DNA from: Utricularia gibba
Taxonomy: Eukaryota; Plantae; Magnoliophyta
Direction: 5' to 3'
Assembly (NCBI GenBank): GCA_002189035.1
Contig: CM007989.1
Location: forward strand, 5,208,001 to 5,272,000
Length of the DNA stretch: 64,000 nt
Numbering within the stretch: the first letter of the stretch is position 1; each line of letters begins with the position of its first letter. The translations under genes and the position numbers were made by a program. Of this stretch, positions 1 through 64,000 are shown in pieces. The notes below the pieces were generated by a model. That model did no database searches. It worked only from the letters and a program-made list of their open reading frames with translations, and was not told the DNA's origin.

Positions 1-324
1 TCTCTTAAGATGTAAGAATAATCATATGAACTGATTGAGCCTTTCCTTGACCAGCCGCCATGCAATGAACAGCTTTTATCATACTTATATCTCATTTGAT
101 ACCAAAACATGGGTGTGTGTCTTTTTGATTTATCAAACTTATCATTGCATTTAACCACTAAAACTCAATGACCTACTCAAACACTTTGAGTGTCATGACC
201 ATGTGCCAAGGACTTACTGTTATAGGAATTCATCAATGATATAAATTTGATCACAATTCAAAGTAAATATCAAAAGATAAGATTTTCCAATGAGTTGATT
301 GTCTCTTGAACACATACACCAAAA
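1..324 (-). mobile_element. Angela-like copia LTR fragment, internally deleted, including the LTR 5' terminus
   Basis: Reverse complement of the LTR at 57183-58616; ends in the degenerate terminus gaacacatacaccaaaa (cf. TGTTGGTATACGTGTTC at 30763). Confidence 0.85.
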
Positions 325-329
325 ATTGT

Positions 330-520
330 GTCTTCTGTTAAGTACTATCTTCTCCCATCAAGTGATCATGTAATCCGCAAACGCAACAATAGCAAGCTTG
401 AGCTTCTTGGCATCAGAATTGTTGTGGTATTCAAAGACATGCTCCATATTTGAAATAGGCAATTGGATCATTCTTCTCTTTAATGTTGTCAAATTCCATG
501 TAGTCATGTGTGTGCCATTC
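330..520 (-). pseudogene. gag: CRM-type gypsy gag fragment
   Basis: Minus-strand translation KNDPIAYF...EHVFEYHNNSDAKKLKLAIVAFADY, the same gag region as at 29267. Confidence 0.65.
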
Positions 521-1552
521 TACAAGAGTATTCTAGTTTTGAGATTTCTTCATGCTGTTGTAACAATATGCATCTCATTCTGCTACAAGACATCGTTGTA
601 GTGTTTAGCCCTTTGTTTGTGCATGTGTAAACTATGCTCTAATCACGTGCTTTCGTCACATCTCCACCACTCTGATTTTAAAATCCGTTTGAGGGCGTGC
701 AACCAACAAGGGCCGCTCCTTCAAGTTGCTATAGGACACATCCAAGCCGTACGATTTCCGAAACTGTTGTGTTCAATGCCACGGTGGCTACCAACCCATG
801 TTCCGTGCTTTGATAAATGCTGGCCATGGATGCACATTGTGATCATCCAGAGGTCGCATTCACTGAGCTAGTCATGAGCCTAGTTTACTCTGATGTCTTT
901 GTTTGCAATTGTATGGCACTCAGTTATCCACAAAATGCTAGAAAACTCTCTTTATGACATGCACAAACACACAAGGAAGTGACTAGCATCAATGATATCA
1001 ACAACTTGTTCATAAACACCAATTTCGGGGCCCTCCGTGGGGATGTGCTTGGCCTGATGCATCCAACGAGCCATACTAAACGACACATCCTCTTTAGTTC
1101 GATAAAACCTCAACGTGCATCACCAGGCTGCCAATTGGATGGTGGCTCAAGGTGCATTCCCTAAAAATATCCATGCTCATTCGAGAACGATGGTGCCATG
1201 AAAACTCGCTCGACGCCAACTACATGTTCGAAGCTCTAACAAATGTCATCAACGAGTCTCATAGCGTATCTGGTTGATTGGTTGCGAATGACCATGCCGT
1301 CGTCTCCAGAATTTCAGGCCTAGAATACTGATGTCTTTCAGCTAACAATGGAGTTTCCATATCCTTCTTCATCCTACTCACGGAATCAGCAACAAGGGTA
1401 GCCCTTGCGAAGGAAATGGAGTTTCCATTTTGATGGAAGGGGCACCTTCACGGCACCATGTTTGATTCTTTACCCTAAAGATGTCCCTCAGCTTGAGAGA
1501 TTCTATATACATCATGCACTTCGCAACGGAAGGATTGTGCCTCGTTGGATTC
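520..1552 (+). pseudogene. Unknown P/Q coding repeat: last codons of P (TAG 534-536), then unit Q with an internal deletion near 1165
   Basis: Nucleotide match to 19922-20395, 27966-28267 and 32266-34200 (reverse); frame ISETVVFNATVATNP starts at 754. Confidence 0.75.
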
Positions 1553-1554
1553 AG

Positions 1555-1953: not shown

Positions 1954-2503
1954 AGTTACTACCAATTTCATTCTAGTATGAATGAGTTTCTCCTTGGCTG
2001 CCATAAAGAGGAAGTAGCTAGATCATATCCATGCTCATTTCATTACGATGGAAGAATAACAACTTGATCGAGACCATGTGGATGTTCCAAGCTTCAAAGA
2101 ACTCTATCAAAGACCCCACTTAGTGTATGGCACTGGTTGCTTTAGTCTATTCGTTCAACAATCAGTCTCTATTTGATGGGCAGTGAAGAGACCGTGCCCC
2201 GTAATCCACTAGCTCGAATTTCAAATACTAATGCTTTCTGAGTTGCAATGTAGCTACTATGCGCATATTCATCCTACTTACGGCATCAGCAACAAGGGTT
2301 GACCGGAGAAAGGGATGGTGGATGTAAAAGAGATGCTCGTTTCTGTGGAAAAGTCGCCTCCGCTGCACCATGTTGGATGGTTTCTCCTAAGGTGTATGTA
2401 TTGAGGTTTGGGATATCCCGTATGCACTGTGCACTTCAAAACACAAGGATTGTGCCTTCAAGGCTTCAAGGCTGAGAAATCCGCGGGTAGCACCAGGTTG
2501 TGT
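1954..2503 (+). pseudogene. Unknown P/Q repeat: C-terminal part of unit P
   Basis: Matches 5390-5843 and 33670-34200 (reverse); YPCSF..DG and YGISNKG motifs. Confidence 0.75.
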
Positions 2504-2544: not shown

Positions 2545-3830
2545 CATGCCTACTGATCATAGTCACGTATGAAATCAATAAAGATGAGGTCCACATTAGT
2601 ATGGAGGTTGTTTTTACCAACCAATGGAAATGAAGCAGGTGCTATCTAAAGGAAGGGCCACATGGCAACCTCCAGATAGAGGGGAAGCTGACTCATGGTG
2701 TCTATTAGGCTCAGGTGGATGGAGTCATTTTGAAAGAAAGCTGGAGAATCATAGTTGAAGAGGAAGGAAGGTAGAGAATACAACTAGTGAAATGAGGGGA
2801 AAGTTCTTGATTTTAGTTGTAGAATGAGATTACTTCTATAGGGAATACGGTAGGTAGGATGAGTGCTACTGCTTTTTGGAAGCATGTTTTGATGCTTCTG
2901 TAGAACATATGTGATTGATTGCCTATGTGTTATTATATGTCGTTTTGGAATGGTCTTGATAGTCGTTTGATGGGACTTGGCAATCATGCCTCATGCCTCT
3001 TGGGCCCTGTGCAATGGTCTTGATAGTGTGGTATCAGAGCAAAGGTTTAAAGGGTCCCTTGGTTGATCACCTATAAGAAGTGTAGAGGAATTGGAGTACG
3101 GTTTTATGTGTGCTAATTATTGTAGGGTGTCATTCACATATGTGTGATCATAGGTTTGCAAGATGGTTAGGGGAAAGTCAATAAGTACTGAGATGTCTGA
3201 GGAACCAAGTCAAGAGTCTCGCGAACCAGACACAGTGCCAAGGGCATCGGTAGGGGCTGGAGGTGAAGAAACTATGCGACAGCTTGTTCAAAATTTGTCT
3301 GCAGCCATGACAAGCCTCACTAATGTGTGTGTGCTAATGTGATGAGGAATAATGTGGGAAATTCAGGTAAAGAAGTTGCAAGTGAAGGGGTGACTTGCAA
3401 AAATGTAAAGGAAGCAAAGGATTACCATGAGTCACTCAACAAGGTGGGCGTGCGAACCTTCAAGTCCGGAACACTTGAGGAGGCAGAAGCTTGGATTCTG
3501 GGGTTGGAAGAGAAGTTAGAGTTTATAAAGCACCTGAGGAGATGAAAAAGATAATGGCTGTACATTGGCTAGACGGGAATGCTGCAGCAGGGTGGAGTTT
3601 GGCAGACTTCGTCAAGATACCACTTGGACCGAATTCATGACTGTGTTTTATGAAAACTTCTTTCCAGATGCGCTGAGACATGTCAAAAGAATGGAGTTTG
3701 ACAGACTTCATCTAGGGTCTATGATTGTGATTGAGTACTTGAGTAAATTCCATCACAACAGACGGCATGCACCCAACCTGTTGGCTGAAGAAAAGGAGAA
3801 AACACACAAGCACATTGAATGGTGATGCAA
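2545..3830 (+). mobile_element. gag: Tekay/Del gypsy: LTR 3' part, PBS and degenerate gag
   Basis: LTR part matches the solo LTR at 52389-53796 (reverse); TGGTATCAGAGC at 3029-3040; gag from ATG 3163 with TTWTEFMTVFYENFFP, homologous to 56933-57180. Confidence 0.8.
3029..3040 (+). other. Primer binding site (tRNA-iMet)
   Basis: TGGTATCAGAGC directly after the LTR end. Confidence 0.9.
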
Positions 3831-4345
3831 TAGCCAACGTTGTAGTGTTTAGCTCTTCGTTTGTGCATGCCAAAACTGTCTAACAGACAGTGTGCCACGA
3901 AAACTAGCTCGACGTCAACTACATGTTCGAAGGTCTAGCAAATGCCATCAGAGAGTCTCATGGCGTATCCCGCACCACTTGCTTCCGTCCTTAGGCTCCA
4001 CCGTCAGTGTCTGGTTGATTGGCTGCGGATGACCATGCCGTCGTCTCCAGAATACCGATGCCCTTTGCCTAACAACGGAGTTTCCATTTCCTTCTTCGTC
4101 CTACTAACGGAATCAGCAACAAGGGTAGCCCCTACGAAGGCAATGGAGTTTCCGTTTCGATGGAAGGGTCACCTTCGCGGCACCATGTTTGATTCTTTAC
4201 CCTGAAGATGTCCCTCAGCTTGGGAGATTCTATATACATCGTGCACTTCTCAACGGAAGGATTGTGCCTCGTGGGATTCATGGCTGACGAATATTCAGGT
4301 TGCATCACCTTGAGTTTGGCATGGCTTCTTTCCAGAGGGTTCTAG
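3830..4345 (+). pseudogene. Unknown P/Q repeat: unit Q (short N-terminal piece, deletion, then C-terminal part ending at TAG 4343-4345)
   Basis: RPTNGISNKGSP...VSMEGSP...IVHFSTEGLCLVGF, paralogous to the P block at ~5700-5843 and 33613-33915. Confidence 0.75.
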
Positions 4346-4373
4346 TTTCGAGACTTGTTATTCTGTTGCGTCG

Positions 4374-5843
4374 ATGCGCATCCAAGGATGTCCCCTATTG
4401 CATCACTTGAAAGCGATCAAATGAAAGTCCGTAAATGGAAATGCATGCGCAGCGATTGCTGCTTTAAGGACTTTGTTTGTGCAACTGTAACCTCTCTTCT
4501 CGTTGTGCACTTTTGCTCAAGTTTCGAACACCCTCATCACCCAATCCAGGTCAGGGCTTCCTAGGATCGCCAACCACTACACGAAGTTGGTATAGCACCA
4601 TCGAAGCGGCGGAATTTCCGAAAGTCTTTTGTGCAATGCGGCCGTGGCCACAAACCCATCTTCCCGACCGCGTTACTTGCTGGCTATGCAAGCAGATAGC
4701 GGTCATCCACAAGTCACGGTTACCCCGCTAGACGCGAATCTGGATAACTCTCATGCCTTGTTGCGCCAATCGTATGGCACTAGGTTATCGTGTAAGTGGT
4801 AGAGAACTTGGTTTGTGCGATTCAACAAACCCAGCGGAGGCACGTGTTATGCTGAGAAGGTACTTTCTGGCCCTTGGAATGTGCATACGTTGTTCACAGA
4901 CCCTAAATCTCAGGGCTCTCCAAGGTGGCCTACTTGGCCCGATCAGCATTGCACGTTCCAAAACTAACGAAGCTTCTTCTATAGTTCGAGGACCTCTGAC
5001 GCCGCATTACGAGGCAGACAGTAGGATAGAAGCTCGGTGTGTGTTAGCTGAAGCCTACACATCGCTCCATCCAAGAAATCCAAATGACTCTTCAACGAGT
5101 CACGGCTGTATTCAAGGAACTTCCAAATGGCTACCGTGTGGACGAATGTCGAGCACGCTGTACTCCTAAACCGATTATCACCCCATGAATCTTGGTGCCA
5201 GCTTGATCAAGTTCATTATTCAATATACTAGCTTCATGGGTGTTGCCTTTGCATATATGATGGTCTCAGACATCGAAGTCGAATCCTCCTTTACGCCTGT
5301 CGGACACTCTACTCAAGCGCTCTGGTTCGTCTGTCACGTCGTTGTGCTTTATCTACATCTTCGCATTAGTCGATTCTGCTCCTGACACGTAGTTACTAGC
5401 AATTTTATTCTAGTATGAATGAGTTTCTCCAGGGCTGCCATGAAGAGGAAGTGGCAGGGTCGTATCCATGCTCATTTTGATTACGATGGAAGAAAGAAAA
5501 CTCGATCGAGACCATGTGAATGTTCCAAGCTCCGACGAACTCTATCCACGACCCTACTTAGTGTATGGCACCGGTTGCTTCAGTCTATTCGTTACACAAT
5601 CAGTCTGTATTTGATGGGCAGTGAAGAGACCATGCCCCGTAATCCACTAGCTCGAATTTCGAACACCAATGCTTTCCGAGTCGCAATGTAGCAACCATAT
5701 GCTTATTCCTCCTACTTACGGCATCAGCAACAAGGGTAGGCCTGAGAAAGGGATGGTGGATGTGAAGGAGATACTCGTTTCAGTGGAAAAGTCGCCTCCA
5801 CTGCCACATGTTGGATGGTTTCTCTTAATGTGTATGTATCTCA
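4374..5843 (+). pseudogene. Unknown P/Q repeat: unit P, most complete copy (ATG 4374, frameshifted, 3' truncated)
   Basis: ORFs 4753-5169 and 5185-5385 are in one frame separated by a single stop; blocks YTSLH, HPMNLGAS..FII, VSDIEVES and YPCSF are conserved with unit Q. Confidence 0.75.
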
Positions 5844-7013
5844 CATACAGTGGTAAACAAGTTCAGTAAATAAGGTAGTTAAGCAATATCAGGTTTCTAC
5901 GCTAAGGTAATAGGTACTGGTTTTGACTCAAACTAATACGACGACGCCTTAAGGGTTTACGAGTGGTGTTATGCTAAGCTTCTTAACTTAATTTATAATC
6001 TTCCTACACTTACAACTTCAAATAACCTAAGTCTACCCAGGTCATTCATAATATTTTTGGCTTAAGCTAGTCCCCAATATCATAACCAACATTCCACTTA
6101 GGTCTACCCACATACAAGACATATAGAACTAGGTATACCCGGTTCTACTTGTTCTACCCTAGACTAACACCAACTGATCCTGTCTTGGTTTGTTGGTCTA
6201 CCTCTAAACCAAGCATCTAAGTTGTGAAACTACTTGCTCCCCTCCTTAGATCTACTCATGGTTTGTTAGGAACAAGAGTTAAGGAAGACAACTAAATTTC
6301 ATCATCAATATAAGCACATACCACCCACTTCTCCTTAAGGCATCCCTAAGACTTTAACCACTCATGCTTTGGAAATAAAACACGATTTCATTCATATAAG
6401 TTGGCCAAAATGGCAGAAACATTGTAAACAAGTAAAATGCAGAAAGTCGAAATGTTCAGAAAACTAGAGAGTAAATAAAGAGTGCTCTTCCGCCCGTTAG
6501 CTACTGTTCACAGCCCAGAACAGTGGCGCTGGACTGGGCTTTGGTGCTATTCTTCGTGATGAAGGCCTCCCTTCCCCCTTCTGGTTGGTGTTTTTCCCGT
6601 TGGGGAAGAAGACCGCCTTGCGTCCCCCCTCTATTCTCTGTGTTCTCCCTCTATTCTCTTTTTCGAAAATAAATTTCCCCTTTTCTTCAATCCATTGCAC
6701 TGTTGCTGTCCGCTAGTACTGTTCCCGACCGCTAGCACTGTTCCCAGCCTGAATTTGCAATCTGTGGTAGCGGACGAACAATGCTCTTTGTCCTTCTCCG
6801 GATTTTGCGCCCTTTTTTGCTTGTTTTACACGTTTTCAAGTCTGATTTTCGCCTTATCTCCGTAGTTTACTGACAGGAAACAAAACAGATAAGCAAGTTC
6901 TCGACTATTCCTAGCATAGACTAACAGACACATACCCGAACATCATCCTAAGTAAAAATAAAACTAAGAAATAAAAATAAAATAAAACTACGCAAAATAA
7001 GTTCAACAGCAGG

Positions 7014-8760
7014 TTATTTGCTCAGGGAGGAGTCTTTCACTCCCTTTTTAAATTCTTGCACTTCACGAATTAAATCAGACATTTTCTCATTCAATTCTTT
7101 GATCATTTCCGGGCAGCAGCATTCTGTGCTGTTGTGCTTGGAGGTTGCAAGAGCAAGGGCATTTGTGTTGCCTTCTTCAGGGATAGGCTGTCCGCAAAGA
7201 CCTGCCAAAGATCTAAAAACAAACCCACTTCCTTGGGCTTTAATTAGTCCTGCCACTTTCAAGAAATATGCATCTAAAGGCACTGTCTTAGACTCAACAG
7301 TAAAATATTCCAATTCAAACAGTTTCTCTGGGCATAAAGTATGAGCAATATGCGTAATAATGTTTCCAAAACTCAAATGTTGAATTTTTGTACGCCTATA
7401 GTCTCTAATCATTTGCTCAGCAATCATGGCACCTAAGTTCAGGGATCGTTTGTTCATGATACACCACATAACAAATAATTCACACTTATAAAGGGAATTA
7501 AATCCTACTGTTCGTCCAAAGAGGGTGGTGATAACAAGGATATGAACATAACGCATAACTGGATCAACAAACAAATCTGCCTTAAACTATATAGCATGCT
7601 GGTCGGTCAGAATCGCATAGATTTCCTCAGCATCAAATTCATCGGGATAATCAAAAAGGGATGCAGCAAACTCATGAGAATCCACATCATTTTCTGAACA
7701 AAATCCTAGAGCTACGTTCCACTTAGCTAATGAAAAAGAAAATTGAATCCCCATTAACCTAAAAGAAATAGCAGCAGGGTGTTCAACATGTCTGAAAATT
7801 CAATTTCAGGAATTTCATACGCAAAAGTGGAAGCAAATTCATAAGAAAGTTCAATATATGCAGGGAATTTCATTTCAAATAATTTCATGAATGCTGTTCC
7901 TTCAAACAGGGAAGAAATTCTATCAGCAATTCCTAATTCTTCCAAAATATCATGATCAATATGACGACATGGTGTTACCTTTGCACCCTTGACCTCACCA
8001 TACCGTTCAGCTTGCATTTCTTCTGTGAAAGTTAGGTATTGGGTGTTCAACATGTCTACGTGATGCTTGAAGTATGGTATCCCCTTGCGCGTCATTTGCC
8101 TCTAAAATTTCTCCTTTTCATGCGCAAACTTCCCTGCTTTCAAATACAGAGGCACCAGTCTAGGTAAAAATTTATTTTTTTAACTTGCACCTTCATTTTC
8201 CTTTCCTGTTGTGCTTCTGAGTGGCTGCTCCTCTGCTTCCTCAATCTCCTCATTCTGATTTTCTTGATTTTTGCCCTCATTTCTATCCATTAGATTTTCT
8301 TCCTTGGCAGCTTGTTCTTCCTCTGGTCTATCCATTTCATCTCCTGATTTTTCAGTGTTTTTCTCTGGAGCAGGTGGTGCTGGTTCTTGGGCGTGACATC
8401 CTCTTCTTCAGGGCAGGTTCGTCCAGTGGTACTCTCTGCTTTTTCTTCCTGCCCTTCCCTTTCTTCTTCTTCGTCAAGACTTGTGGCTCTGTCGGCAGTT
8501 CCTCCACTGGTTTTTCTTTTGTAGCTCTTCTACATGTCTCTCAATCTTTGTTGGAGGCTGACATTGTCCATGTTGGTGTTGTCAGATGGTTCTCCCATCT
8601 CAGTGGCCTGAAGGATCACGTCCACTCCCTGGAAATTTTCTGCATCGGCAATAGTAGGCAAATTTCCTTCTTCGAGGGCTGGAGCAGCAGTGATTTCTGC
8701 TTCTGCGGTTCCATCACCTCTCCTTTGCGGTTTTTCTTCCACTTCTTGCTGCAGGCATGT
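7014..8760 (-). pseudogene. Athila env-like ORF (putative plant transposon protein type), broken
   Basis: ORFs 8530-8742, 7754-8095 (ELSYEFASTF) and 7014-7574 lie between integrase and the 3' LTR; homologous to 45106-45810. Confidence 0.75.
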
Positions 8761-9104
8761 TGTTTCTACCGCTGTAATTTTTCAGAAAAATTCACAAGAG
8801 AAACGGTTGAAGTGAGGAACAAATAAACTGCTCCTCCAATTCATTTCAAGCACCAGGGGTTTTCCTGTCATTTCCTTGGGTGCGACTTCCCACTTCTCTC
8901 AACGGTTGAATTTTTGCGTAACTCCTCATGCTCAATTACCCTTGAGTCAAGCATCCATCCTTACCCAACAGCACAAAACATGGAAAAAAAAATCCTAAAA
9001 GAAAACATTAAAACAGAAATACAATGCATAAATTAAAAGAGTTAACCATGGGTTGCCTCCCATAAGCGCCCTTGTTTAAAGTCTTGGACCCGACTTCTTG
9101 TGTG

Positions 9105-12100
9105 ACTACGTTTTTGGTGAATCCATCAGCTTGATCACCTCCAGATTTCCTGTGATCATGTTAGCATTTTCATAGAAAATTTTTAATCTATGGCCATTTA
9201 CCAAAAATCCCTTGTTTGAGTCTCCATCAAATATGTCTACAGCACCATTTGGAAAAATTTCCTTCACAATAAAAGGCCCTACCTATCTTGATTTCAGCTT
9301 CCCAGGATGCAATTTCAACTTGGATTGAAATAATAAGACTTTCTGGCCAATCTCAAAATTTCTCCTGGAAATGTGCGCGTCATGATATCTCTTAGTCCGA
9401 GCCTTGAATAGTTTTGAGCTCTCGTACGCATCATTTCTCAACTCTTCCAGTTCCGAAAGCTGGAGTTTCCTGTGGCTTGCACTAAGGTCTCTATCCAAAT
9501 TTAACTTCTTCACAGCCCACTAGGCCTTGTGCTGAAGAGCTGCTGGTAATCTACAAGGCTTCCCATAGACCAACCGAAATGGAGAGGTTCCAATGGAAGT
9601 CTTGTATGCTGTCCATATAGTCCAAAGTGCATCTTTCAACCTCATGCTCCAATCCTTTCTGTTTGGGTTCACAACTTTCTCCATAATTTGTTTGATTTCT
9701 CTGTTGGAGACTTCAGTTTGTCCATTGGTTTGTGGATGATATGCTGTAGAAGGCTTGTACCAAACATTAAAGTGCTTCAAAACACTCCTTAAGGGCTGAT
9801 TATAAAAATGTGTTCCCCTATCACTGATCAGCGCCTTAGGAGTCCCATATCTCGTAAAGATGTTGTTGCGCAAGAAATTAATCACAGTTTTTGCATCATC
9901 AGTCCTCGTAGGGATTGCCTCAATCCATTTGGACACATAATCAACAGCAACCAAAATATAATTGTAACCTGCTGAAGTAGGAAATGGTCCAACAAAATCT
10001 ATACCCCATACATCAAATAATTCATATACCAGGATTCCTTGCTGGGGCATTTCGTTTCGGTTTGATAAATTTCCTACCCTTTGGCATGGTTCACAACCTT
10101 TGCAATGGGCATAGCAATCTCTGAAAATATGTGGCCAATAAAATCCGCAATCTAGAATTTTTCTTGTTGTTCTATTTGGTCCATGATGTCCACCAAAAGG
10201 TCCTGCATGACAAGAATCAATTATTTTTGAAATTTCATTTTCATGAACACACCTTCGCATGAAACCATCATTGCATCTCTTCCATAAATATGGGTCATCC
10301 CATCCCATATGTAGCATTTGGCATCACTCTTAAGCTTGTTCCTTGCATGATAGTCCATTCCAGGTGGCATCACCCCTGTGGAAACAAAGTTTGCAAGATC
10401 AGCAAACCACGGTTCACGTATACTAGTCTGAACTAAGAATAGCTGCTCATCCGGGAACGTTTCAGTTATGATTCCATCTCCTTCACTTCCTTCAATCCTG
10501 CTGAGATGATCAGCCACAAGGTTCTCCCTTCCAGGCCTGTCCTTTATCTCAACATCAAACTCTTGAATAAGAAGGACCCATCTAATGAGTCTTGGTTTGG
10601 AGTCCTTCTTCTCCATTAAGTGCTTCACTGCCGAATGATCAGTGTACACCACCACCTTGCTACCTAAAAGATAAGAACGAAATTTTTCCAAAGCAAAAAT
10701 AACAGCAAGAAATTCCCTTTCAGTGATGGTATAATTTTTCTGGGACTTATACAAAGTTTTCGAAGCATAAGAGATAACATGGTGGTTTACTTCGATTTTC
10801 TTTTCTAATACAGCACCCACGGCATGATTACTTGCATCACACATGATCTCAAAATCATATTTCCAATCAGGTGGTTGCATAACAGGTGCAGTAGTAACAG
10901 CCTTTTTTAAAAAAATAAAAGCTTGCTTACATGAATCATCAAAATCAAAGGCAATATCATTATGCAACAACCTACTAAGAGGCAAGGCAATTTTCGAAAA
11001 ATTCTTAATAAACCTCCTATAAAAACCAACATGTCCTAAAAATGATCTAATAACTTTCACATCAATAGGATAAGGAAGTTCAGACATATTTTCAATTTTT
11101 GCCTTATCTACCTCAATGCCTTTTTTAGAAATTACATGGCCTAAAACAATTCCATGATCCACCATAAAATGACATTTTTCAGAATTTAAAACCAAATTCT
11201 TTTCCACACATTTCTTTAAAACTTGATCTAAATGCTCTAAGCATGACTCAAAATTCTCTCCATATACAGTAAAATCATCCATAAATATTTCAATAAAATC
11301 ATCACCAAAATTAGATAAAATACTAGTCATACACCTCTGAAATGTAGCTAGGGCATTAAATAATCCGAAGGGCATCCTCCTATACGCATAAGTTCCACAT
11401 GGGCATGTGAAGGTTGTCTTATCTTGGTCCTATCCTAAAATAGGAACCTGATTATATCCAGAATATCCATCCAAAAAACAATAAAATGATTTTCCAGCCA
11501 ATTTTTCCAACATTTGATCAATAAAAGGCAAAGGATAATGGTTTTTCTTTGTCACTTTATTTAATTTTCGATAATCAATGCAAACGCGCCATCCATTTTG
11601 CACCCTTTGTGGAACAAGCTCGCTTTTCTCATTCTCCACCACAGTCATCCCTGTTTTCTTTGGCACCACGTGAATGGGACTCACCCATTCACTATCTGTG
11701 ATAGAGTAAATAATCTCTACATCATGGAGTTTAACAATTTCTTTTCTTACCACCTCCATCATGTTTGGGTTGAGGCGTCTTTGAGGTTGGCGAACTGGTT
11801 TTGCACCATCCTCCAGAAAAATTCTGTGCATGCATATGTATGGGCAGATCCCCTCAATGGCATCAAGCGTCCAACCTATTGGCTTCTTATTTCTGTTCAG
11901 ACCTCGAGCAGTTGTGACTCTTGGTCTGAGCTTAGACCAGTGGAGATGATAACCGGGTTCCTAAACTCTGCGTCAAGAAAAACGTATTTCAAATGATTAG
12001 GCAATGGTTTTAATTCAGCTAACCTCTCTTCCTGAGTCTTGGCTTGCACCACATTTAATTGCTCGAATTTTGCAAATAAAGATTCTTCATGAGCCTCTTT

Positions 12101-14270
12101 CTTTTCTTGAATTTCTTTCTTCAAGTGCTCCTCAATTAGTCCATCCATGACATCCACAGCACAAATGCTCTCAAAATCACTGGTATAATTCTTCACATCC
12201 TTCATGTCCAGTGTGATTTTGTCTTCATCAAAAGAAAGCTCGATGGTCCCCATCTTCATGTTGATAATAGCATTAGAAGTGCTCAAGAATGGTCTCCCCA
12301 AGATAATGGTCATGTCTTTTGATCCTCCAGTGGGCAGGTTCACCACATAAAAATCAGCTGGGAATTCAAGATGCTTAATTTTCACCAAAACATCCTCTAC
12401 TAGGCCCTTGGGAGAGATCACTCTCCTATCCGCTAACTCAATTTGCACACCCGACGCTTGCAAAGGTCCCAACCTAAGTGCCTCATAAACAGAATTCGGC
12501 ATGACATTTATAGAAGCTCCCAGGTCTGCCATAGCTCTCCTAATGCACAAATCTCCTATTTTGCATAGAATAAAAAATGTACCCGGATCCTTACGCTACT
12601 CGGGTAATTTCCATGTAAGAAGTACTGAGCAGCTTTCACTCAACTTCACCTTGCCCTTCTCCTTCAGCTTCGGTTTGGACATACACAATTGCTTCAAATA
12701 TTTAACACTCTTCGGCACAAGATCAATATACTCCAAAAGAGTCAAATTCAATTGAGTATTTCAAAATTTTCTCCTTCTCAGTTTGCTCTTCTTTCGCCTT
12801 CAGCCTTCATGGAAAAGGAGGCTGGGTCACCTTCACTACAACAGGTTCTGGGAGTACCTCAATTTCGTCTTCACTCTGAACAGCAACTTCGTTCTCCTCT
12901 GTCTCTTTCTTCTTAGTCTGGGGCTGGACTAATTCTCGTCCAGGCTTCTCTTTTCCACTCCTAAGTGTCATGGCGCTGATGTTCAGCCCTCCACTGGAAT
13001 TTGGATTTGGCTTGGGTTGAGATGGCACACTCCCTTTCTGTTTTAGGTCTCCAAGCTCTGCTGCTAGCTAAATCACTTGAACCTCCAAATTCCAGATTGC
13101 TTGTTGATTTTCAACTTGATTCTTAATTGATTGCGCCATGAATGTCTTCAACATATCTTCCAACGAATTTCCAGAATTCACTCCAGCATTTCCTTGATAT
13201 GAGGCGCCTGATAAGATCTTTGCTCCTGAAAATTTTGCTGCCCCATGGTTGAGCTTTCTCCTTTGTAAGAATTTTCATTGTTGCTTCAACGAAAATTTGG
13301 ATGATCCCTCCAGCCAGGGTTGTAAGTGTTAGAATAAGGGTCATATTTCTTCCTTTGCTGGGCTCCAAGTATCCCATAGGCTTTACATGCTCTTCTTCAA
13401 ATAAATCGGGCACTTGTCCGCAACATGCCCAGTTCTGTGACAGTTTTCCGCACGGCATGTTCTTAGCCTGGAATAAGAACAGCTCCTTCATCATTTCTGA
13501 CATAGCAGCAACATTTTTCGTGATCTCATTTTCTGAACCTCTGGGCTTGCTCTCCAGTTCATACACTCTCTTGTTTGAGACTTGCTTCCTGATGATATGC
13601 CTCGAATGCTCAGCCAACTCCTCAAGCAAGGAAAGTGCTTCGGTTGGTGTCTTCTTTTTTAGAAATCCTCCTACCGCTCAATCTTCCATTGCTCGGTCAG
13701 TGCATAATAATCCATCATAGAAGTATTTGACCAAAGCATTGGTCTGAAAACCATGGTGTGGGCAGGAACCTAAAAGATGATTAAATCTCTCCCAATATTC
13801 GTGCGATGATTCTCCACTCATTTGTTCAACATCACTGATTTCTTTTCTAATACCTTCAGCCTTGGAAGCTGGAAAATACTTGCTCAAAACCACTTTCTTC
13901 ATTCCAGCCTAATCGGTTATGCTTCCAGGCCATAGTGAGTTGAACCATGTTTTAGCTCCTCCTTCCAAAGTGAACTGGAAGTCTCTCAAACAAATGGAAT
14001 CTTCAGTCATTCCTGCTCCCTTGAATGAAGTGCATACCGATGTTACATTGTCTAGATGCTCATGGGGGTTCTCTCCAATTTTTCCATAAAACTTGGGCAA
14101 AAAATTGATCATCGCCGGTTTCAGCTCATTCGCTCCATCCTCTGGAAATCTGATGCACAGACCCCTGTAAGTGTGATCAGCAGCATCCAATTCGTTTAAG
14201 GTCTTCTCAAGTTCAGCCATTGTGAAATTTCTGATAGTCTCGGGTGAGAGTTGTCTCGATCTGCTCACTT
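9105..14270 (-). pseudogene. gag-pol: Athila gag-pol with stops and frameshifts
   Basis: DLGASINVMP (protease), QNGWRVCIDYRKLN and IFMDDF (RT), [12 protein letters not shown] (RNaseH), ELFDVWGIDFVGPFP (integrase). Confidence 0.95.
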
Positions 14271-14388
14271 TCTTGACTCTTACCTGTTTTTGCTGATACC
14301 TCTCTCAATTTCTGGAAGAAAAGTGAGATTATCTGCACCAGAAGAACATAAATGCATCAACTAAAAACACAAAAGAATTAAACACCAC

Positions 14389-14406
14389 TCCCCGGCAACG
14401 GCGCCA
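14389..14406 (-). other. Athila primer binding site
   Basis: TGGCGCCGTTGCCGGGGA on minus, 3 nt from the LTR end at 14410. Confidence 0.9.
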
Positions 14407-15465
14407 ATTTGATAAACGGAAATTTCCTAATATCGTTGAAAATAAAAATAGAAAATCCGTATCAAATAAATTTATAATCCCTAATATACACAAAATACAA
14501 ATTTGGAAAACTTGTATACTGGATATCAGTGTCGATCATGAAGAGCTTGTGCTTGCTAAGTATTTTAGTACATGCATAATTTCGGATAACAGTAGGTCTT
14601 AGTCTAACCTCGAACTAACAGTGGTAAACAAGTTCAGTAAACAAGGTAGGTAAGCAATATCAGGTTTCTACGCTAAGGTAACAGGTACTAGTTTTGACTC
14701 AGACTAATACGACGACGCCTTAAGCGTCTGCGGGTGGTGTTATGCTAAGCTTCTTAACTTAATTTATTATCTTCCTACACTCACAACTTCAAATAACCTA
14801 AGTCTACCCAGGTCATTCATCATATTTTTGGCTTAAGCTAGTCCCCAATGTCATAACCCACATTGCAATTAGGTCTACCCGCATGCAAGGCAAATAGTAC
14901 TAGGTTTACCCGATTCTACTGATTCTACCCTGGACTAACACCGACTGATCCTGTCTTGGTTTGTTGGTCTACCTCTAAACCAAGCATCTAAGTTGTAAAA
15001 CTAATTGGTCTCCTCCTTAGATCTACCCATGGTTTGTTAGGAACAAGAGTTAAGGAAGGCAACTAAATTTCATAATCAACCTAAGCAGATACCACCCACT
15101 TCTACTTAAGGCATCCCTAAGACTCTTGCCACTTATGCTTTGGAAATAAAACACGATTTCATTTATATACTCTTGGCAGAAACATTGTAAACAAGTAAAA
15201 TGCAAAAAGTCGAAATGCTCAGAAAACTAGAAAGTAAATAAAGAGTGCTCTTCCGCCCGTTAGCTACTGTTCACAGCTCAGAACAGTAGCGTTGGACTGG
15301 GCTCCGGTGCTATTCTTAGTGATGAAGCCCATGAAGCTTCTCACTAAAATAAGCAAGTGGACGTCCATTTTGCATTAATACAGCACCAATGCCTAAACCT
15401 GATGCATCACATTCAATTTTAAAAGTATCAGAAAAATTTGGAAGTGCTAAGAGATGTGTTGAGCA

Positions 15466-18700: not shown

Positions 18701-19617
18701 TTCAAGATGACTGACCTTGGAATGATGTCCTACTATCTAGGCATGGAAATTCATCAACTTAAAGGTGTTGGAACATTCATATCTCAGAAAAAGTAGTGTA
18801 ATGAACTTCTTGAAAGGTTTGGGTTCAAAGATGTCAATCCTTCAAAAACGCCTTTGGATTACAAACAGGTGATTGGAGAGAACAATCAGGGAAAGAATGT
18901 GGATGCCACTACTTATAAAAGTATGATTGGAAGCCTCATTTATCTCCAGCATACAAGGCCTGACTTGTGTTTTTGTGTAAATGTCTTATCTTGCTTCCTC
19001 AACAAACCAACAACAACTCACATGGCAGCTGTGAAAAGAGCTTTCAGGTATATAAAATCTACTATTGATTTCGAATTGTTCTATCCCTATGAAGGTAAAA
19101 AACCAGTCTTGAAACTTAGAGCCTACTTAGATAGTGATTATGGTATGGCTGAAGATAGTAAGAGTATATCTGGTGCACTCTTCTTCTTAAATAAGACCCC
19201 TATAGTCTGGTTTTTGAAGAAACAAAAAGTGGTAGCACAATCAACAGCTGAAGCAGAATACATCTCAGTAGTACATGCTTCGAACTATTGTGTTTGATTG
19301 AGGCAGATGCGAAACGAACTTGGATTCATACAAAAGGAAGCTACACATCTGCTTTTGGATAATCGAGCTGCAATCTCCATTGCCAAGGATCCGACGAACT
19401 TCAGCAAAGCCAAACACATAAGAATCAGGTATCATGTCATAGGGAATTATATCAAGGAGAAGAAGATTAAAGTACAATATGTTGAGAGTGGGAATCAGCT
19501 TGCTGATGGGGTCACCAAAGGTTTAAACAGAGTTCAGTTTGAGCTAGCAAAGAAGAACATGAATCTCATGACTATGGAAGACTTTGTGAAGTTGGGAGAT
19601 CTCGGTCTGGGGGGGAG
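15755..19617 (+). mobile_element. Ivana-like copia internal region (gag, zinc knuckles, integrase, RT, RNaseH, PPT); protease region deleted
   Basis: PPIFDGSEYGSW gag start, tandem CxxC..H..C knuckles, IIRSDNGGEF, YKARLVAKGY, SLYGLKQAPRAW, AKHIRIRYH, G-rich PPT at 19609-19617. The lineage call is less certain than the copia call. Confidence 0.88.
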
Positions 19618-19921: not shown

Positions 19922-20395
19922 CGAGAAATCCGCGGGTAGCACCAGGTTGTGTTTCGCATGGGCTGCTACAAGAGTATTCTAGTCGCGAGATTTCCAGTGT
20001 GCATCCAAGGACGTCCTCATTTGCATCACCTTAAGCGACCGAATCGTCATCCATGAATGGTGATGTAATAGACAACCTTATAGTGTTTGGCTCTTCGGTT
20101 GTGCATATGAAAACTGTGTTCTTGTGGCGTATTTCCGTCACATCTCCACCACTCTGATCTTCAAATCTGTTGCAGGGCGTGCAACCATCAAGGACCGCTC
20201 CCTTAAGTTGCTATAGGACCCAGCCAAGCAGGAGGATTTCCTAAACTCTTGTGTACAATGCCACAGCGGCTGCCAACCCACTTTCGTTGCTTTGTTACTT
20301 GCGGGCCATGCATGCAAATGATGATCATCCAGAGGTCACACTCATTGAGCTATACGTGAGCATGGCTCACTCTCATGTGTTGGTTCGCGATTGGA
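19922..20395 (+). pseudogene. Unknown P/Q repeat: end of P (TAG 19980-19982) and start of Q
   Basis: Matches 33340-33675 (reverse) and 520-890. Confidence 0.75.
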
Positions 20396-24544: not shown

Positions 24545-25350
24545 AACAAGGAGTGTTATTAATAATGGATTGTAATAATCAAATCCATGATCAATTAATT
24601 AACCATGGTTTGTAATAATAGATTTATTAATGAACTTTTAATAAATCAAATCCATCATTATCGATCAACGTATAATGATCCCCAAGATGTAAGAATAATC
24701 AGGTGAACTGATTGACCCTTTCCATGATCTTGGGTCTAGGACTTACTGTTAGACTTTGATGCAATTACTTGAGATAAGATCTCATAGCTAACATGAGTGA
24801 CGAATCCTTTATTGATCAATAAACTATCTCCAATCTTAAGAAGTCACATCTCTTCTCATCTATACTAGGTAAGCAGTGGCTAGGCTACCATTAGTAAAGA
24901 AGGAAAATGTGAACTTAAGATCAAAATAACTTTGTTAACCTCAAGTCTAAGCTTACCTGCACGGCTGTCATATACGAGATCTTGCTACTGACACTTGGTT
25001 AGGTGCACATAGTAGCATCTTGAAGACGAGTCATTCAGTGAATCGATTCTCTAATCAATACCCACACATTGGTTCCAGTAATCTCATTATATCAATTGTG
25101 AGAATTATTGCCTAAACAATTTAGGGAACTCAATGTGTGAAAACTTATTCGTAGTTGTGATATCTTCATTTCCCAAATACTCTAGCTAGCGAATCATTCG
25201 TGAAGAATCTCACATTATAATTTCTTCATAATTTCTATAGCACATAGATCAAGTATAGGATTTTATCAATGATATAAATTTGATTAGTATTCAAAGTCAA
25301 TATCAAAAGACAAGATTTGTCAATGAGTGGATTGTCTCTAGAATAAATAT
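24545..25350 (-). mobile_element. Angela LTR fragment with internal deletions and scrambled left end
   Basis: Reverse complement of 30780-31690. Confidence 0.8.
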
Positions 25351-27965: not shown

Positions 27966-28267
27966 TTTCAAGATTTGTTCCTGCTGTTGCATCAATGTGC
28001 ATCCAAGGACATCCTCAGTTGCATCACCATAAGCGACCGAATCATCATCCATGAATGGTGGTGCAATAGACAGCGTTGTCGTGTTTAGCTCTGTGTTTGT
28101 GCATGTGTAAATTGTGGTCTAATCGCATAGTTCCATCACATCTCGATGACTCTGATCCTTAAATCGGTTTGAGGGCTTGCACCCATCAAGGACCACTCCC
28201 TGAAGTTGCTATAGGACCCAGCCAAGCAGGACGATTTCTGAAACTCTTGTGTACAATGCCACGGCGG
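27966..28267 (+). pseudogene. Unknown P/Q repeat: start of unit Q with ATG at 27995
   Basis: ATG TGC ATC CAA GGA aligns with ATG CGC ATC CAA GGA at 4374. Confidence 0.75.
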
Positions 28268-28925
28268 TGGTAAACGAAAATTTTGCAATGTCATGAAATG
28301 CAAATTTTTCCTATCAAATAAATTTATAACCTAACATATATTCAAGCGTAAAACAATTATGAGCATAGTGATTAGGGTCGAACACGAAAAGCAGGTGCTT
28401 GCTATGTGAAAGTCAATACATGAAATCAGTGTCACGTTGATAAAATTGGTTTTAACTAGGACTAATGTAGAACTACAACAGAATATAGTAAAGAAAAGTA
28501 ATAAGTTTTGGAGTTCAGTTGTTTTGGAATGAAATGGGTGATGCTTGGAATTTCTAGGGATGTATGCTTATCACTAAACATGCTCACACAAACCATAAAT
28601 CATACAACTAACTCACAAGGTCTAGGTCTACCCGCACTCTTGTTTTCCCCCTAATCTTTGGTCTACTTGTAATTATGGTTGTTAAGCTAGGTTTCATTCG
28701 AATAAAACTATTAGAAGGTAATTTAATCCCAACTAAGAAAAATAACGCAATCACGGTACTTATGCACAAAAATATAAAATTAGGTAGTAACATTAAATTT
28801 TTGTAGCACAATATGAATCTTTTCCATGTACTTAATCACTCAAAAATATGTGTTATCATTCAGCTGTCAACCAACTTTCGTTGCTCAATGCAATGTAAAC
28901 TTGGTCAATGCCAAGTACATGTTTT
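28268..28925 (-). mobile_element. Athila-like LTR, 3' portion, terminus at 28268
   Basis: TGGTAAACGAAAATTT resembles TGATAAACGGAAATTT at 14410; matches 1555-1950. Confidence 0.65.
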
Positions 28926-28934
28926 AAGCTCTAA

Positions 28935-29225
28935 AAAATGCCATCAAAGAGTCTTCTCATAGTGTATACGGTACCCCTTGATTTCGTCGCTTTGCTCCAG
29001 CACCAGTCTTTGGTTGATTGACTGCGAATGACCGTGCCGTCGTGTCTAGAAGTTTGGGTTTAGAATACCAATGCCTTTTATTCGAGATCATATGGATGTT
29101 TCAAGCTCAAACAAACTCCATCCATGACCCTAGTTAGTATATGGCATCAATTGCTTCCGTCTATTCGTTTAGTAATCAGTCTCTAGTTAATCGGTAGTGA
29201 AAAGACCGTGCACCATACTCCAATA
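28935..29225 (+). pseudogene. Two short, more degraded P/Q fragments (Q-type 28935-29060, P-type 29085-29225)
   Basis: Similarity to 3940-4070 and 5510-5650. Confidence 0.6.
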
Positions 29226-29839
29226 GAAAGAATGATCTAGATGCATATCTGCAATGAGAAACTCAAGTGGAAAACATAATCGGTTGTAATAACTACTCTA
29301 TAGACAAGAAGATAAGATGGGCTTCCATGGTATTCAGTGACTATGTAGTCATTTGGTGGGATCAATGGGTGAGTAAAAGAAGGAGTGACTATGAAGAACC
29401 AATTGGCATTTGGTCTGAGATGAAGATAATCATGAGGAAACATTTTTTCCAAGCCATTACCAAAGAGATATGTATCAAGAAATCAAAAATCTGAAACAAG
29501 GTTATCTATCAGTTGAGGAATATTGGAAACAAATGGAGATCTTGATGATTCAAGCCAATGTTCGTGAAGATAGAAAACGAACTATGACTAGGTTCCTTCA
29601 TGAAATGAATAAAGAGATTTCAAATTCTATGGAGCTCTAATATTACATTCAGATGGAGGACATGATTTATAGGATAATCAAAGTTGAGAAACAACTCTCA
29701 AACAAGAAATTTGCTCGAAATTTCAACAAGAAGGCTCCTAGTTCAAAATTTGGAGGCACAAATGAGATGCATGAGAGAACTAAATGGAAGTCATCGATGG
29801 AACACTCCAAATTCGACACCCATTAAGTTCCAAGCAAGG

Positions 29840-30443: not shown

Positions 30444-32265
30444 CAAGGGGAGCGAAAAACACCTCCAAAGCGCACTACAAGGAATATAAAATGTTTCAAA
30501 TAGTTCGGAAATGGACATATTGCTTTTGAATGTCCAAACGAAAGAGCAATGATGTTGCGAGACAATGCAGAAGTGATTAGTGAAGATGATGATGATCTTG
30601 TGGAGGCAAAATTGAGTGATAAGGATGAAATGCCTGTTTCAGAAGAAGTGTTAGTCAATTGAAGGACATTTAATATTGGAGTTAGGGATAATGATGAGCA
30701 AAGAGAAAACTTGTTCAAAACACATTTCTTTGTGAATTTCAAGGTTTGTAACTTGATCATTGTGTTGGTATACGTGTTCTAAAGACAATCAACTCATTGG
30801 AAAATCTTATCTTATGATATTTACTTTGAATTGTGATCAAATTTATATCATTGATAAAATCCTCTACTTGATCTATATGCTATAGAAATTATGATGAGAT
30901 CATAATATGAGATTATTCAAGTACTCATGATGAAGTTAAAACTCTCTGCCTAGAGTATTTGTGAAATGAGAATATCACAAATACGGATATCACAAAGACG
31001 GATAACCTGACACACATTGAGTTCCCTAAACAATTTAGCCAATAGTTCTCACAATTGATGTAATGAGATTACTAGAACCTATGTGTCGGTGTCGATTAGA
31101 GAATCGATTCACTGGATGACTCATATTCGAGATACTACTATGGGAAGCTAAGCAAGTGTCAGTAGCAAGATCTCGAATATTGCAGCCGTGCAAGTAAGCT
31201 TAGACTTAGGTCAACAAAGTTATCTTGATCTTAACCTCACATTTTTTATCATTACTAATGGGAGCCTACTCATGGCTTGTCTAGTATGGATGAGTAGGGA
31301 TGTGACTCTTTAAGGTTGGAGATAGTTGATTGATCAATAAATGATTCATCACTCATGTTAGCAATGAGATCATATCTCAAGTAATTGCATCAAAGCCTAA
31401 CAGTAAGTCCTGAACCCAGGGTAATGACACTCGAATTGTTTGAGTAGGTCATTGAATGTTAGTGCTTGAATACAATTCTAAGTTCGATACATCAGAAAGA
31501 AACACACCCATGTTCTAGTATCGAATGAGATATAAGTATGATGAAAGCTATTCACTGCATGGTGGCTGGTCATGGAAAGGCTCAATAAGTTCACCTGATT
31601 ATTCTTACATCTTGGGGATCATGATATGTTGCTAGATATCACTCATGATCGATAATAATGGATTTGATTAATTAAGAGTTAATTAATAAATCCATTATTA
31701 CGCTCTTGATTGAAGAAGGCTATAGGGTCACACACAATAGTGGAGTCACTCAACGATATAAAATAGAATGATACAATTACATGAGATGTAATTGGTAAAG
31801 TGGATAAATTAAATTGAGAGTTATTTTGAGATTAATATTGATTAAACTCAAAATAAAAGATCATATATAGATAAGATTTGGAACATATACATATCTCCAC
31901 AAGATAAGATCTTTACGAAGATATAATTGATATGTTAGCATATATCTATTAAAAGATTTAGATCTTGAGATCTACTCCAAAAGGTCTTCGTGGTCTCTTA
32001 GACTGATCTACAAGGGGCATTTTTCTTTACTAGCACTTGAGTAATTCGACCAGCATTCAAACGCCTTGAGAAGGTTATCGACGAAGTGCTCCACGTGTGG
32101 ATACCAAAGAGGCCGTCTCTTATTGGCGGTTGGTGAACAACGGAGTCATCTGAAAGTTATTTCAGCATCCCTTAGTTTGATGTATACCGTATTCCAAGAT
32201 CTCTTCACTGCCCATCAAATTCCGCTACTTTTGAGACATACGATGTTTACGAGAAACCCAGCAGT

Positions 32266-34200
32266 CTCTTCACTGCCCAACAAATAGAGACTGATTGTGT
32301 AACGAATAGACTGAAGCAACCCAACAGTCTCTTCTGTTGAGAAGTGCACGATGTATATAGAATCTCCCAAGCTGAGGGACATATTCAGGGTAAAGAATCA
32401 AACATGGTGCCGCGAAGGTGACCCTTCCATCGAAAAGGAAACTCCATTGCCTTCGTAGGGGCTACCCTTGTTGCTGATTCCGTTAGTAGGACGAAGAAGG
32501 AAATGGAAACTCCTTTGTTAGGGAAAGGGCATCAGTATTCTAGACCCGAAATTCTGCAGACGACGGCATGGTCATCCGTAGCCAATCAACCAGACACTGA
32601 CGGTGGAGCCTAACGACGGAAGGAAGTGGTGCGGGATACGCCATGAGACTCTTTGATGGCATTTGTTAGACCTTCGAACATGTAGTTGACGTCGAGCGAG
32701 TTTTCATGGCACGCACCATCGTTCTCGAATGAGCATTTATTTGTCCCAACAGAACCTCCGTCTTGTAGTCAGCATAGAACTCGTTGACACTAAAACGTAA
32801 TTGGCGGTATCTACTCGGCAGCAGCGGATTCCACAAGGTGAACATGTGGATGATGCACAATAACGCACGCAACACATGAAGAAGAACCCGTGAGTAGTTT
32901 GTCCGGCATGCAGATACGAGCATTCGATTTCGACGTGCGAGACCACAAACCAGCTCAAGGACAGACTTACGAAGGGCTTTTCATGAATGATAAACGCATC
33001 CACGCTGGCACCCTGATGCATGGGATGATTACAGATGAAGGTGTAAATAAAAAGTTGTCAGGCATGAAAGCGAAACACTATCCAATGAGTGTCGTCCGAC
33101 ACAATCCATGTCGTGGTCTGTATCCGACAGTTTCTAGAAAACAACTAGTGGGGAACGAGTCCACCACAGTTTCCTTGATGAGAGATTTGGAGATGTGGAA
33201 TGGAGGGACGTGTAGTTTTTAGCAAATGCACCTCGAGCCACCATCCAATTGGCTGCCTCGTGATGCACATTGAGGTTTTATCGAACTGAAGAGGATGTGC
33301 GTTCAGTATGGCTCGTTGCATGCATGCAGCCGCCGTGGCATTACACAAGAGTTTCGCAAATCGTCCTGCTTGGCTGGGTCCTAGAGCAACTTCAGGGAGC
33401 GGTCCTTGATGGTTGCATGCCCTCCAACGGATTTGAAGATCAGAGTGGTGGAGATGTGACGGAAATACGCCACTAGAACACAGTTTGCATATGCACAAAC
33501 GGAGCCAAACACTATAAGGTTGTCTATTACATCACCATTCATGGATGACGATTCGGTCGCTTAAGATGATGCAAATGAGGACGTCCTTGGATGCACACTG
33601 GAAATCCCGTGACTATAATACTCTTGTAGCAGTGCATGCGAAACACAACCTGGTGCTACCCGCGGATTTCTCGGCCTTGAAACCTTGGAGGTACAATTCT
33701 TGTGTTTCGAAGTGCACAGTGCATTCGGGATATCGCAAACTGAGATACATACACGTTAAGAGAAAAAATCCAACATGGCGCAGCGGAGGCAACTTTTCCA
33801 CTGAAACGAGAATCTCCTTCACATCCACCATCCCTTTCTCTGGCCTACCCTTGTTGCTGATGCCGTAAGTAGGACGAATAAGCATATGGTAACTACATTG
33901 CAACTTGGAAAGCATTGGTGTTCGAAATTCAAGCTAGTGGATTACGGGGCACGGTCTCCACTGCCCATCAAATAGAAACTGATTGTGTAACGAATAGACC
34001 GAAGCAACCGGTGCCATACACTAAGTAGGGTCGTAGATAGAGTTTGTCGGAGCTTGGAACATTCACATGGTCTCGATCGAGTTTTCTCTCTTCCATCGTA
34101 ATCAAATGAGCATGGATACGACCCTGCCACTTCCTCTTTATGGCAGCCCTGGAGAAACTCATTCATACTAGAATAAAATTGCTAGTAACTACTTTACGGC
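32266..34200 (-). pseudogene. Unknown P/Q repeat: C-terminal part of P followed by most of Q
   Basis: ORFs 33613-33915, 32737-33021 and 32666-32923 align with 5669-5869, 5185-5385 and 3900-3945. Confidence 0.78.
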
Positions 34201-58616: not shown

Positions 58617-58639
58617 GAGATCTCGTGAATGCATATAAA

Positions 58640-63519: not shown

Positions 63520-64000
63520 TGTTAATGTATGTGTTTTAGAGACAATCAACTCCTTGGTAAATCTTATCTTTTGATATTTACTTTAAATTGTGATCAAATT
63601 TATATCATTGATAAAATCCTCTTCTTGATCTATAAGCCATAGAAATTATGATAAGATCATAATGTGAGATTCTTCAACCATTTATGTTCAACTTAAAAGC
63701 TCCCTAGTTAGAGTGTTTGTGAAATGAGGATATCATAAATACGGATAAGTTAGCACACATTGAGTTTCCTAAACTGTTTAGGCAATGGTTCTCACAATTT
63801 ATGTAATAAGATTACTAGAACCTATGTATGGGTGTCGATTAGAGAATCGATTCACTGGATGACTCATCTTCGAGATGCTATTATGGGAAGCTAACCAAGT
63901 GTCAGTAGTAAGATTTTGATTATGACAGCCGTGCAAGTAAGCTTAGACTTAAGGTCAACAAAGTCATCTTTATCTTAAGCTCACATTTTCGCTCATTACT
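63520..64000 (+). mobile_element. Angela LTR, runs off the window
   Basis: TGTTAATGTATGTGTTTTAGAGACAATC; colinear with 57183-57660. Confidence 0.88.

Follow-up and report, generated by a model that had tools for sequence, protein, structure and literature searches.

The question raised by this locus of Utricularia gibba (GCA_002189035.1, CM007989.1, positions 5,208,001-5,272,000 of the forward strand) is how two related sequence units, P and Q, came to alternate head to tail in plant-type DNA that is rich in Ty3/gypsy and Ty1/copia remains. An initial annotation of the same 64,000 nt, which are referred to here as the window and within which all coordinates are counted, had taken them for the concatemer of a 3.2-kb circular replicon with an old P+Q duplication and two genes 28-29 nt apart. 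The sense strand is the one on which P and Q were read in that annotation, i.e., the plus strand for copies A and C to G and the minus strand for copy B. Self-comparison of the window reveals a repeat far above chance, which extends from 520 to 34192 and is broken into seven pieces of P/Q sequence, namely C (520-1553), D (1954-2503), A (3816-5843), E (19922-20393), F (27966-28267), G (28889-29226) and B (34192-32264, minus strand). The features are as follows:

520..536, plus strand: end of P in copy C with the junction TAG
537..1553, plus strand: Q of copy C with internal deletions; 29-nt spacer, ATA in place of the ATG
1954..2503, plus strand: 3' part of P in copy D, 88-89% identical to P of copies A and B
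3816..3879, plus strand: short 5' piece of Q in copy A, joined by a deletion to the 3' part of Q
3892..4345, plus strand: 3' part of Q in copy A, with the junction TAG at its end
4346..4373, plus strand: 28-nt spacer of copy A, homologous in the P and Q junctions
4374..5843, plus strand: P of copy A, the most complete unit, its frame broken by stops and 1-nt indels
4468..5382, plus strand: core of the decayed ORF, a single frame of 305 codons containing 2 stops; homolog not found
5718..5737, plus strand: 20-nt block, nearly invariant wherever a P or Q copy extends over it (six copies, the others at 1380, 2280, 4107, 32464 and 33847)
5847..15330, no strand assigned: Ty3/gypsy element interrupting P between copies A and E
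19922..20393, plus strand: copy E, with the end of P, TAG (19980-19982), a 14-nt spacer, GTG and the 5' part of Q
27966..28267, plus strand: copy F, with spacer, ATG (27995) and the 5' part of Q
28889..29226, plus strand: copy G, a 3' piece of Q joined to a piece of P; the most diverged copy (22-23%)
32264..34192, minus strand: copy B, an inverted duplicate with the 3' part of P, the junction (33615-33596), Q and a 58-nt piece of P
20390-21862, 30763-32264, 57183-58624 and 63520-64000, and on the minus strand 24723-25349 and 4-322: AT-rich 1.47-kb repeat

The order of the pieces on the plus strand is that of the array, with P joined to Q, then P, Q joined to P, and P joined to Q again, followed by Q and by Q with P, the run being cut by LTR retroelements. 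The Ty3/gypsy element between A and E has terminal repeats (5847-6567 and 14618-15330) that are 92% identical, and it is followed by copia remains up to about 19920. When placed on copy B, the end of D and the start of A lie about 100 nt apart, with gypsy gag remains between them in the window, and the end of A and the start of E lie about 70 nt apart, with 14 kb intervening; since these gaps are so small, the pieces belong to one run that was split by retroelements. Copy B is 95-96% identical to copies A and E.

Several other repeats border the array. The AT-rich 1.47-kb dispersed repeat, whose copies are 82-90% alike and which directly adjoins copies E and B, is probably an LTR. A copia segment at 16631-19127 and its inverted duplicate at 37427-34212 (92-98%) also adjoin E and B, and this pair suggests a local inverted segmental duplication. 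The inserts between C and D (1646-1924) and between F and G (28578-28296) are 77% alike and have opposite orientation. Gag-like remains, again in opposite orientation, are found on both sides of the plus-strand array, at 322-519 (minus) and 29240-29500 (plus), the latter matching Pfam Retrotrans_gag with an E value of 0.0017 and the former without a match; they may resemble the centromeric CRM-type gag. The high density of gypsy and copia remains at most hints at a pericentromeric or centromeric position.

When their pieces are summed, P comes to about 1627 nt and Q to about 1653 nt, together about 3.28 kb, and the Q-to-P spacing measured directly is 1597-1611. Since P and Q, which are 65-70% identical, are collinear from end to end including the spacer, the array has a base period of about 1.64 kb, of which P+Q is a dimer. 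Of the period of about 3.2 kb that had been assigned to P+Q, the alternation of the two units and their joint length of about 3.28 kb hold, but the base unit is only about 1.64 kb long. It had been rightly seen that the units lie head to tail with no intergenic DNA between them, and that the array is unlike an ordinary gene cluster. An internal 350-nt subrepeat within the 1.6-kb monomer is not supported.

Copies of the same type differ by 3.8-23.1% (0.038 to 0.231) in a nested fashion, their identity being 77-96% as opposed to the 65-70% between P and Q, so that the copies of the dimer are more alike than the two monomers inside one dimer. The Q copies form nested groups with support values of 96/92 and 97/97, and the P copies an open fork. 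The strict alternation of P and Q with both types of junction, as well as the similar 15-23% by which the deepest dimers differ, would be in keeping with the 3.2-kb replicon, whereas the nesting of the divergence between 4 and 23% argues against it. About five dimers are found within the window, where neither a high copy number nor the long homogenised arrays of satellite DNA proper were found. Contig depth over P/Q is 10-22 in run X3 and 0-101 in run X5, with 954 and 5431, respectively, in the next LTR bin; as contig depth is not copy number, this thin coverage is no more than a rough hint that P/Q is low-copy. In P/Q, contigs of a run from another study have a few variants and different deletion joints.

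At the junctions, the letters reported by the initial annotation are exact: Q ends with TAG at 4343-4345 and P starts with ATG CGC ATC CAA GGA at 4374 after a spacer of 28 nt, and the TAG at the end of P is found with its last letter at 536 and at 19982. Both orders occur as described, Q to P once (copy A) and P to Q three times (copies C, E and B). For the start of Q at 27995, ATG TGC ATC CAA GGA is likewise exact and the 29-nt spacer is homologous, but no TAG stands upstream. A conserved succession of a stop, 28/29 nt and an ATG holds for the stop only, TAG being present in four of the four junctions that keep the site, including copy B on the minus strand (33615-33613), whereas ATG is found in two of five and the spacers measure 28, 29, 14 and 14 nt. 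The check for ATG in further copies, which the annotation had called for, gives ATG at 4374 and 27995, but ATA at 566 and GTG at 19997 and 33598. Along one monomer, P and Q have 12 stop triplets and 15 ATGs in common (in any frame), and at three further places in the unit a common stop is followed by a common ATG 10-40 nt on; unlike the repeat itself, the stop-spacer-ATG pattern is thus not beyond chance. When P is compared with Q, the likeness of the spacer (71-79%) does not fall below that of the 30-nt stretches on either side (63% and 80%). The junction is real, but it had been over-interpreted: the TAG at every junction that keeps the site speaks for two genes on a 3.2-kb replicon, the scarcity of the ATG and the recurrence of the pattern elsewhere in the unit against them.

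With respect to coding, the reading frame lies on the strand that had been proposed, where it is kept in decayed form, and P/Q is an intron-less ORF remnant whose composition is unlike that of the TE genes of the window. On the sense strand of P in copy A, 305 codons contain only 2 stops without any change of frame (1 of 500 shuffles) and 319 codons contain 3 (0 of 500), i.e., p is 0.002 or less by this assumption-free test, which is negative in three non-coding controls. In copy B, the test is borderline (p 0.046-0.52), and in copy C it is negative. A path picked after seeing the data has 3 stops in 316 codons, compared to a null minimum of 10.3; neutral decay at 0.22 per site predicts a mean of 5.1 stops, and the observed 3 fit this prediction (P 0.24). 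The homologous pieces of Q have 5 stops in 306 codons, and in copies A, B and C stop triplets are fewer on the sense than on the opposite strand. If the frame is allowed to change at every P/Q indel, the whole unit has 15 stops on the sense and 23 on the opposite strand, with a null of 21.4 (p 0.049). An ORF on the opposite strand was also considered, as several blocks are more coding-like on the minus strand, and it was set aside, these whole-unit stop counts favouring the sense strand. In P of copy B, an open frame of 106 codons ends with the junction TAG. The stops that are common to the copies lie on both strands.

The codon-composition model gives the sense strand a z of -1.3 to 1.9, compared to 8.4-11.9 in decayed retroelement ORFs, and an AlphaFold model, with a pLDDT of 34, is meaningless. 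The evidence for an ORF is accordingly limited by the low coding z, the weak result in copy B, the negative one in copy C and the p of 0.049 for the whole monomer, and the P/Q unit can be said to have been coding once in part. The G + C content of the P/Q copies is 41-51%, and the observed/expected ratio of CpG is 0.83-0.90 in copies A and B and 0.56-0.68 in C, D and F, compared to 0.26-0.47 in six retroelement coding stretches and 0.64 in the LTR-like repeat. Copy B also has codon-aligned frames that are open in both directions, over 106 codons (32737-33057, minus) and 122 codons (32854-33222, plus). A resemblance of the region 5230-5330 to a strand motif of jelly-roll capsids was rejected, as nothing in the analysis supports it.

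The divergence between P and Q took place without visible protein-level selection. Over 285 codons, they mismatch at rates of 0.35/0.31/0.35 in the three codon positions, compared to 0.28/0.19/0.57 in a gypsy pol pair taken as control; none of 21 P-Q blocks beats column shuffles in any of the six frames (lowest p 0.083), and several fixed 1-nt indels set every P copy apart from every Q copy. There is neither a codon-position signature of such selection nor an equal divergence of the copies, which is nested instead, and P+Q can therefore not be upheld as an ancient functional duplication. Paralogous genes kept on a replicating 3.2-kb circle should differ mostly at third positions, which P and Q do not, and the fixed 1-nt indels, too, count against such a circle; in its favour is a slight excess of third positions among the fixed P/Q differences (39/38/54, p 0.16). 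One block of 28 columns, whose 20-nt core is kept in six of the six covering copies, is conserved beyond column shuffles (0 of 2000), and together with the lean to third positions this implies that part of the P-Q split may be older than the loss of selection; both could be due to gene conversion or to selection that acted briefly at an early stage. Around the invariant 20-nt block, Q has a long hairpin with a direct repeat spaced by 68 nt (4073-4158, 1347-1428 and 32432-32517), which reaches a z of -2.6 in copy C and -0.9 in B; P folds differently.

No mark of a replicon was found. In Rfam, no family reaches its gathering score on P/Q, and with E values up to 10 allowed there are only four matches, which are at the level of chance, and no ribozyme; no rod-like fold was seen over 995 nt of P (z -0.36) or in sliding windows, none of seven junctions folds into a hairpin better than shuffles, and the seven pieces contain no exact nonanucleotide of the CRESS type. 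A hammerhead core common to the copies was not found, and a likeness to a hammerhead that the invariant block shows on its minus strand was rejected, as the core is missing. Pfam gave no match, and hence neither Rep nor RdRp, in 18 six-frame reads or 8 chosen frames of P/Q. As a decay of 10-20% could erase RNA structure, these negatives weigh against a known class more than against a circle as such.

The homolog searches, all of them made with broken and diverged queries, were negative as well. Word-seeded protein searches returned no homolog and no plant protein, protein scans of viral contigs (with queries that were also short) no homolog, and the same holds for prokaryote genomes and metagenomes, for the PDB and for PHROGs. 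Neither blastn nor tblastn found a relative amongst plasmids, a longer motif around the invariant block found nothing in metagenome contigs, and the TE ORFs of the window have no real translated similarity to P/Q. In a full HMMER scan, the sole match of the minus-strand profile, P0001, is a low-complexity repeat protein without a pairwise match and was discarded as spurious; two short matches from the protein scans of viral contigs, L004 (24 aa) and L005 (9 aa), were taken as chance, as was the 20-nt block in three near-identical phage contigs, where the match covers 21 nt only and lacks translated similarity. In the Atlas, the two natural ORFs of copy B scored 0.79 to unnamed clusters and 0.90, with low recognition, to MORN repeats, which are leads only. 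In runs guessed to be RNA, no contig lies on P/Q (X9 against copy A, X10 and X13 against copy B), which is no evidence either way on expression. No title or abstract opening in the literature covered, which leaves out most subscription papers, describes such an array.

The explanation preferred here, with chances slightly better than even, is a low-copy tandem array to which a single ORF-bearing and probably foreign fragment would have given rise as it was duplicated step by step within the plant chromosome; host-side amplification of an ORF fragment as such, with foreign and host or TE sources taken together, is likely. In a first step, a CpG-rich piece consisting almost entirely of ORF would have entered, or arisen at, the locus. 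A reverse-transcribed viral gene would be the preferred source, and since a homolog is missing, it is by composition alone that this piece is regarded as foreign; the lower CpG ratios of copies C, D and F, set beside that of the LTR-like repeat, count against it. The monomer would then have been duplicated head to tail, about when, or after, protein-level selection had ended, and P and Q would have drifted apart neutrally. Thereafter, unequal crossing-over would have multiplied the PQ dimer, one further copy being made in inverted orientation, and finally LTR elements, insertions and deletions shredded the run. Promoter, terminator and UTR would be absent because the duplicated piece was almost all ORF, and a circle is not needed to account for this. 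The array probably does nothing now. It would thus be a small, dead, long-monomer dimeric repeat that was made from a coding fragment and shredded by retroelements, and what makes it interesting is where it came from, namely from a CpG-rich ORF, 300 to 500 codons long, without a relative in the collections searched.

It is unlikely, though in agreement with the setting of the array amongst Ty3/gypsy and Ty1/copia remains, that the monomer amplified on the host side was itself host or transposon sequence, e.g., an orphan gene with a single exon, or else an ORF that a retroelement or DNA transposon, since lost, carried as an accessory. CpG-type transitions are few in the TE pairs of the window, so that CpG richness may persist in host DNA. 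Several of these pairs have transition:transversion ratios near 1 (e.g., 68:69 in the copia pair), which is low for methylated plant heterochromatin. Moreover, long-monomer satellites of plants are often derived from retrotransposons (PMC5895790, in the part available). Against such a source stand the TE ORFs of the window and the plant proteins, neither of which gave a relative, and the lack of any Pfam match.

Rather improbable is a circular source, in which the monomer would be a circle of about 1.64 kb, RNA or DNA and nearly all one ORF, that was inserted once as a rolling-circle multimer and diverged in the host. Any circle would more likely be this monomer than the 3.28-kb dimer, because retained genes should differ at third positions. 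The unit is CpG-rich, homology runs straight across the junction with no visible breakpoint, and the 106-codon open frame in P of copy B reaches the junction TAG. Over P+Q, a path that begins with the ATG at 4374 and finishes with the junction TAG meets 18 stops, the two terminal TAGs counted, which is close to the 15 of the best path; if the sense-strand path is fixed to the ATG frame, the three end phases need 18, 17 and 19 stops, counts too similar to single out the ends of the ORF. At three P-to-Q junctions, the spacers of 29, 14 and 14 nt keep another frame in register, as an endless ORF needs; the 28-nt Q-to-P spacer, however, does not keep the register that read-through requires. A linear piece duplicated in tandem would have an equally seamless period, so that the seamless period cannot tell a circle from a linear source, and no Rfam ribozyme, hammerhead core, nonanucleotide, junction hairpin, rod-like fold, Rep or RdRp was found in the unit. 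With the same small likelihood, the array would be the fossil of a circular coding replicon of about 1.64 kb, with a single ORF of about 530 codons that leaves only about 30 nt of the circle uncovered, and this replicon would have been caught as a rolling-circle multimer in the plant germ line millions of years ago, the dimer being re-duplicated later. If true, it would represent a class of which no living relative has been sequenced, and plants would have preserved in a genome the trace of a circular agent that coded for protein; a homolog in a circular contig, if found, would date a new class of replicon in plants.

That the unit never coded, being a decayed GC-rich long-monomer satellite with an open frame by chance, is very improbable: a composition z of 2 or less on the sense strand, the flat codon signal, the poor fold model and the missing homologs agree with it, while the frame test in P of copy A (p 0.002 or less, unlike the three non-coding controls), the few stops in the Q pieces and the sense strand poorer in stop triplets in A, B and C do not. 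The 3.2-kb replicon of the initial annotation is the least probable of all, given the nested divergence of the dimers and the failure to find in P/Q a replication gene or signal, be it Rep, RdRp, ribozyme, nonanucleotide hairpin or rod-like fold.

Endogenous geminivirus-like sequences reportedly show tandem arrangement. According to the part available of a study on these CRESS DNA-related elements in plants (PMC5014472), they are virus-derived DNA integrated in plant genomes, to which P/Q would be similar, a virus origin being only probable here; the HUH Rep, nonanucleotide and origin hairpin of such elements were not found in P/Q. Plant genomes also harbour endogenous sequences of non-retroviral RNA viruses, such as those like partitivirus CP and others (PMC3136472, in part). 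These resemble P/Q in being a decayed ORF, CpG-rich in the case of P/Q, of about the size of a single segment amongst retroelements (PMC3136472), and differ in that no viral homolog was found for P/Q with broken, short and diverged queries; in the main text of that source, as far as available, the terms "tandem" and "concatemer" do not occur.

A precedent for a concatemer is provided by the DNA multimers of the CarSV retroviroid and by retrozymes, i.e., head-to-tail multimers of circular RNA in plant DNA (PMC11722881, in part). However, CarSV, a carnation small viroid-like RNA, has 275 nt, hammerheads in both strands and pararetroviral flanks, whereas the P/Q unit has 1.6 kb and no ribozyme was found in it. 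The zeta viruses have rod-like genomes of 324-789 nt, their length being a multiple of three, in which ribozymes come in pairs and each strand has a frame free of stops (10.64898/2026.09.16.752053, in the part available). Their circle is wholly ORF, and the codon-aligned frames of copy B that are open over 106 and 122 codons are similar in this respect; the P/Q unit differs by its 1.6 kb, by stops on both strands and by the lack of a rod or ribozyme, the latter two of which decay could have erased.

The closest analogy is with the long-monomer tandem repeats of plants, amongst which are the pericentromeric satellites of Vicia faba, with monomers of 687-2033 bp and mostly 65-80% AT, as well as the Solanum Sobo and centromeric repeats (PMC5895790, in the part available). 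P and Q fall within the 0.7-2 kb that define head-to-tail monomers of this kind without spacers, and the array has in common with them (PMC5895790) a 1.6-kb monomer without subrepeat, a single locus, a retroelement-rich setting and no known likeness to other sequences. By analogy, it can be regarded as working like a long-monomer tandem repeat with a dimeric higher-order unit. It departs from them (PMC5895790) in having only about five dimers with 4-23% divergence, a dimeric higher-order unit and an ORF remnant, and its G + C content of 41-51% contrasts with the 65-80% AT of most V. faba satellites. Being low-copy, GC-rich and ORF-bearing, the P/Q array is not satellite DNA proper.

As regards the underlying assembly, run contigs disagree with the window at some of the 1-nt indels; near 4597, a 1-nt indel separates the window from the contigs of two runs, so that an assembly error is possible there, and run X6 differs at 145 G>A places in the manner of a bisulfite library.
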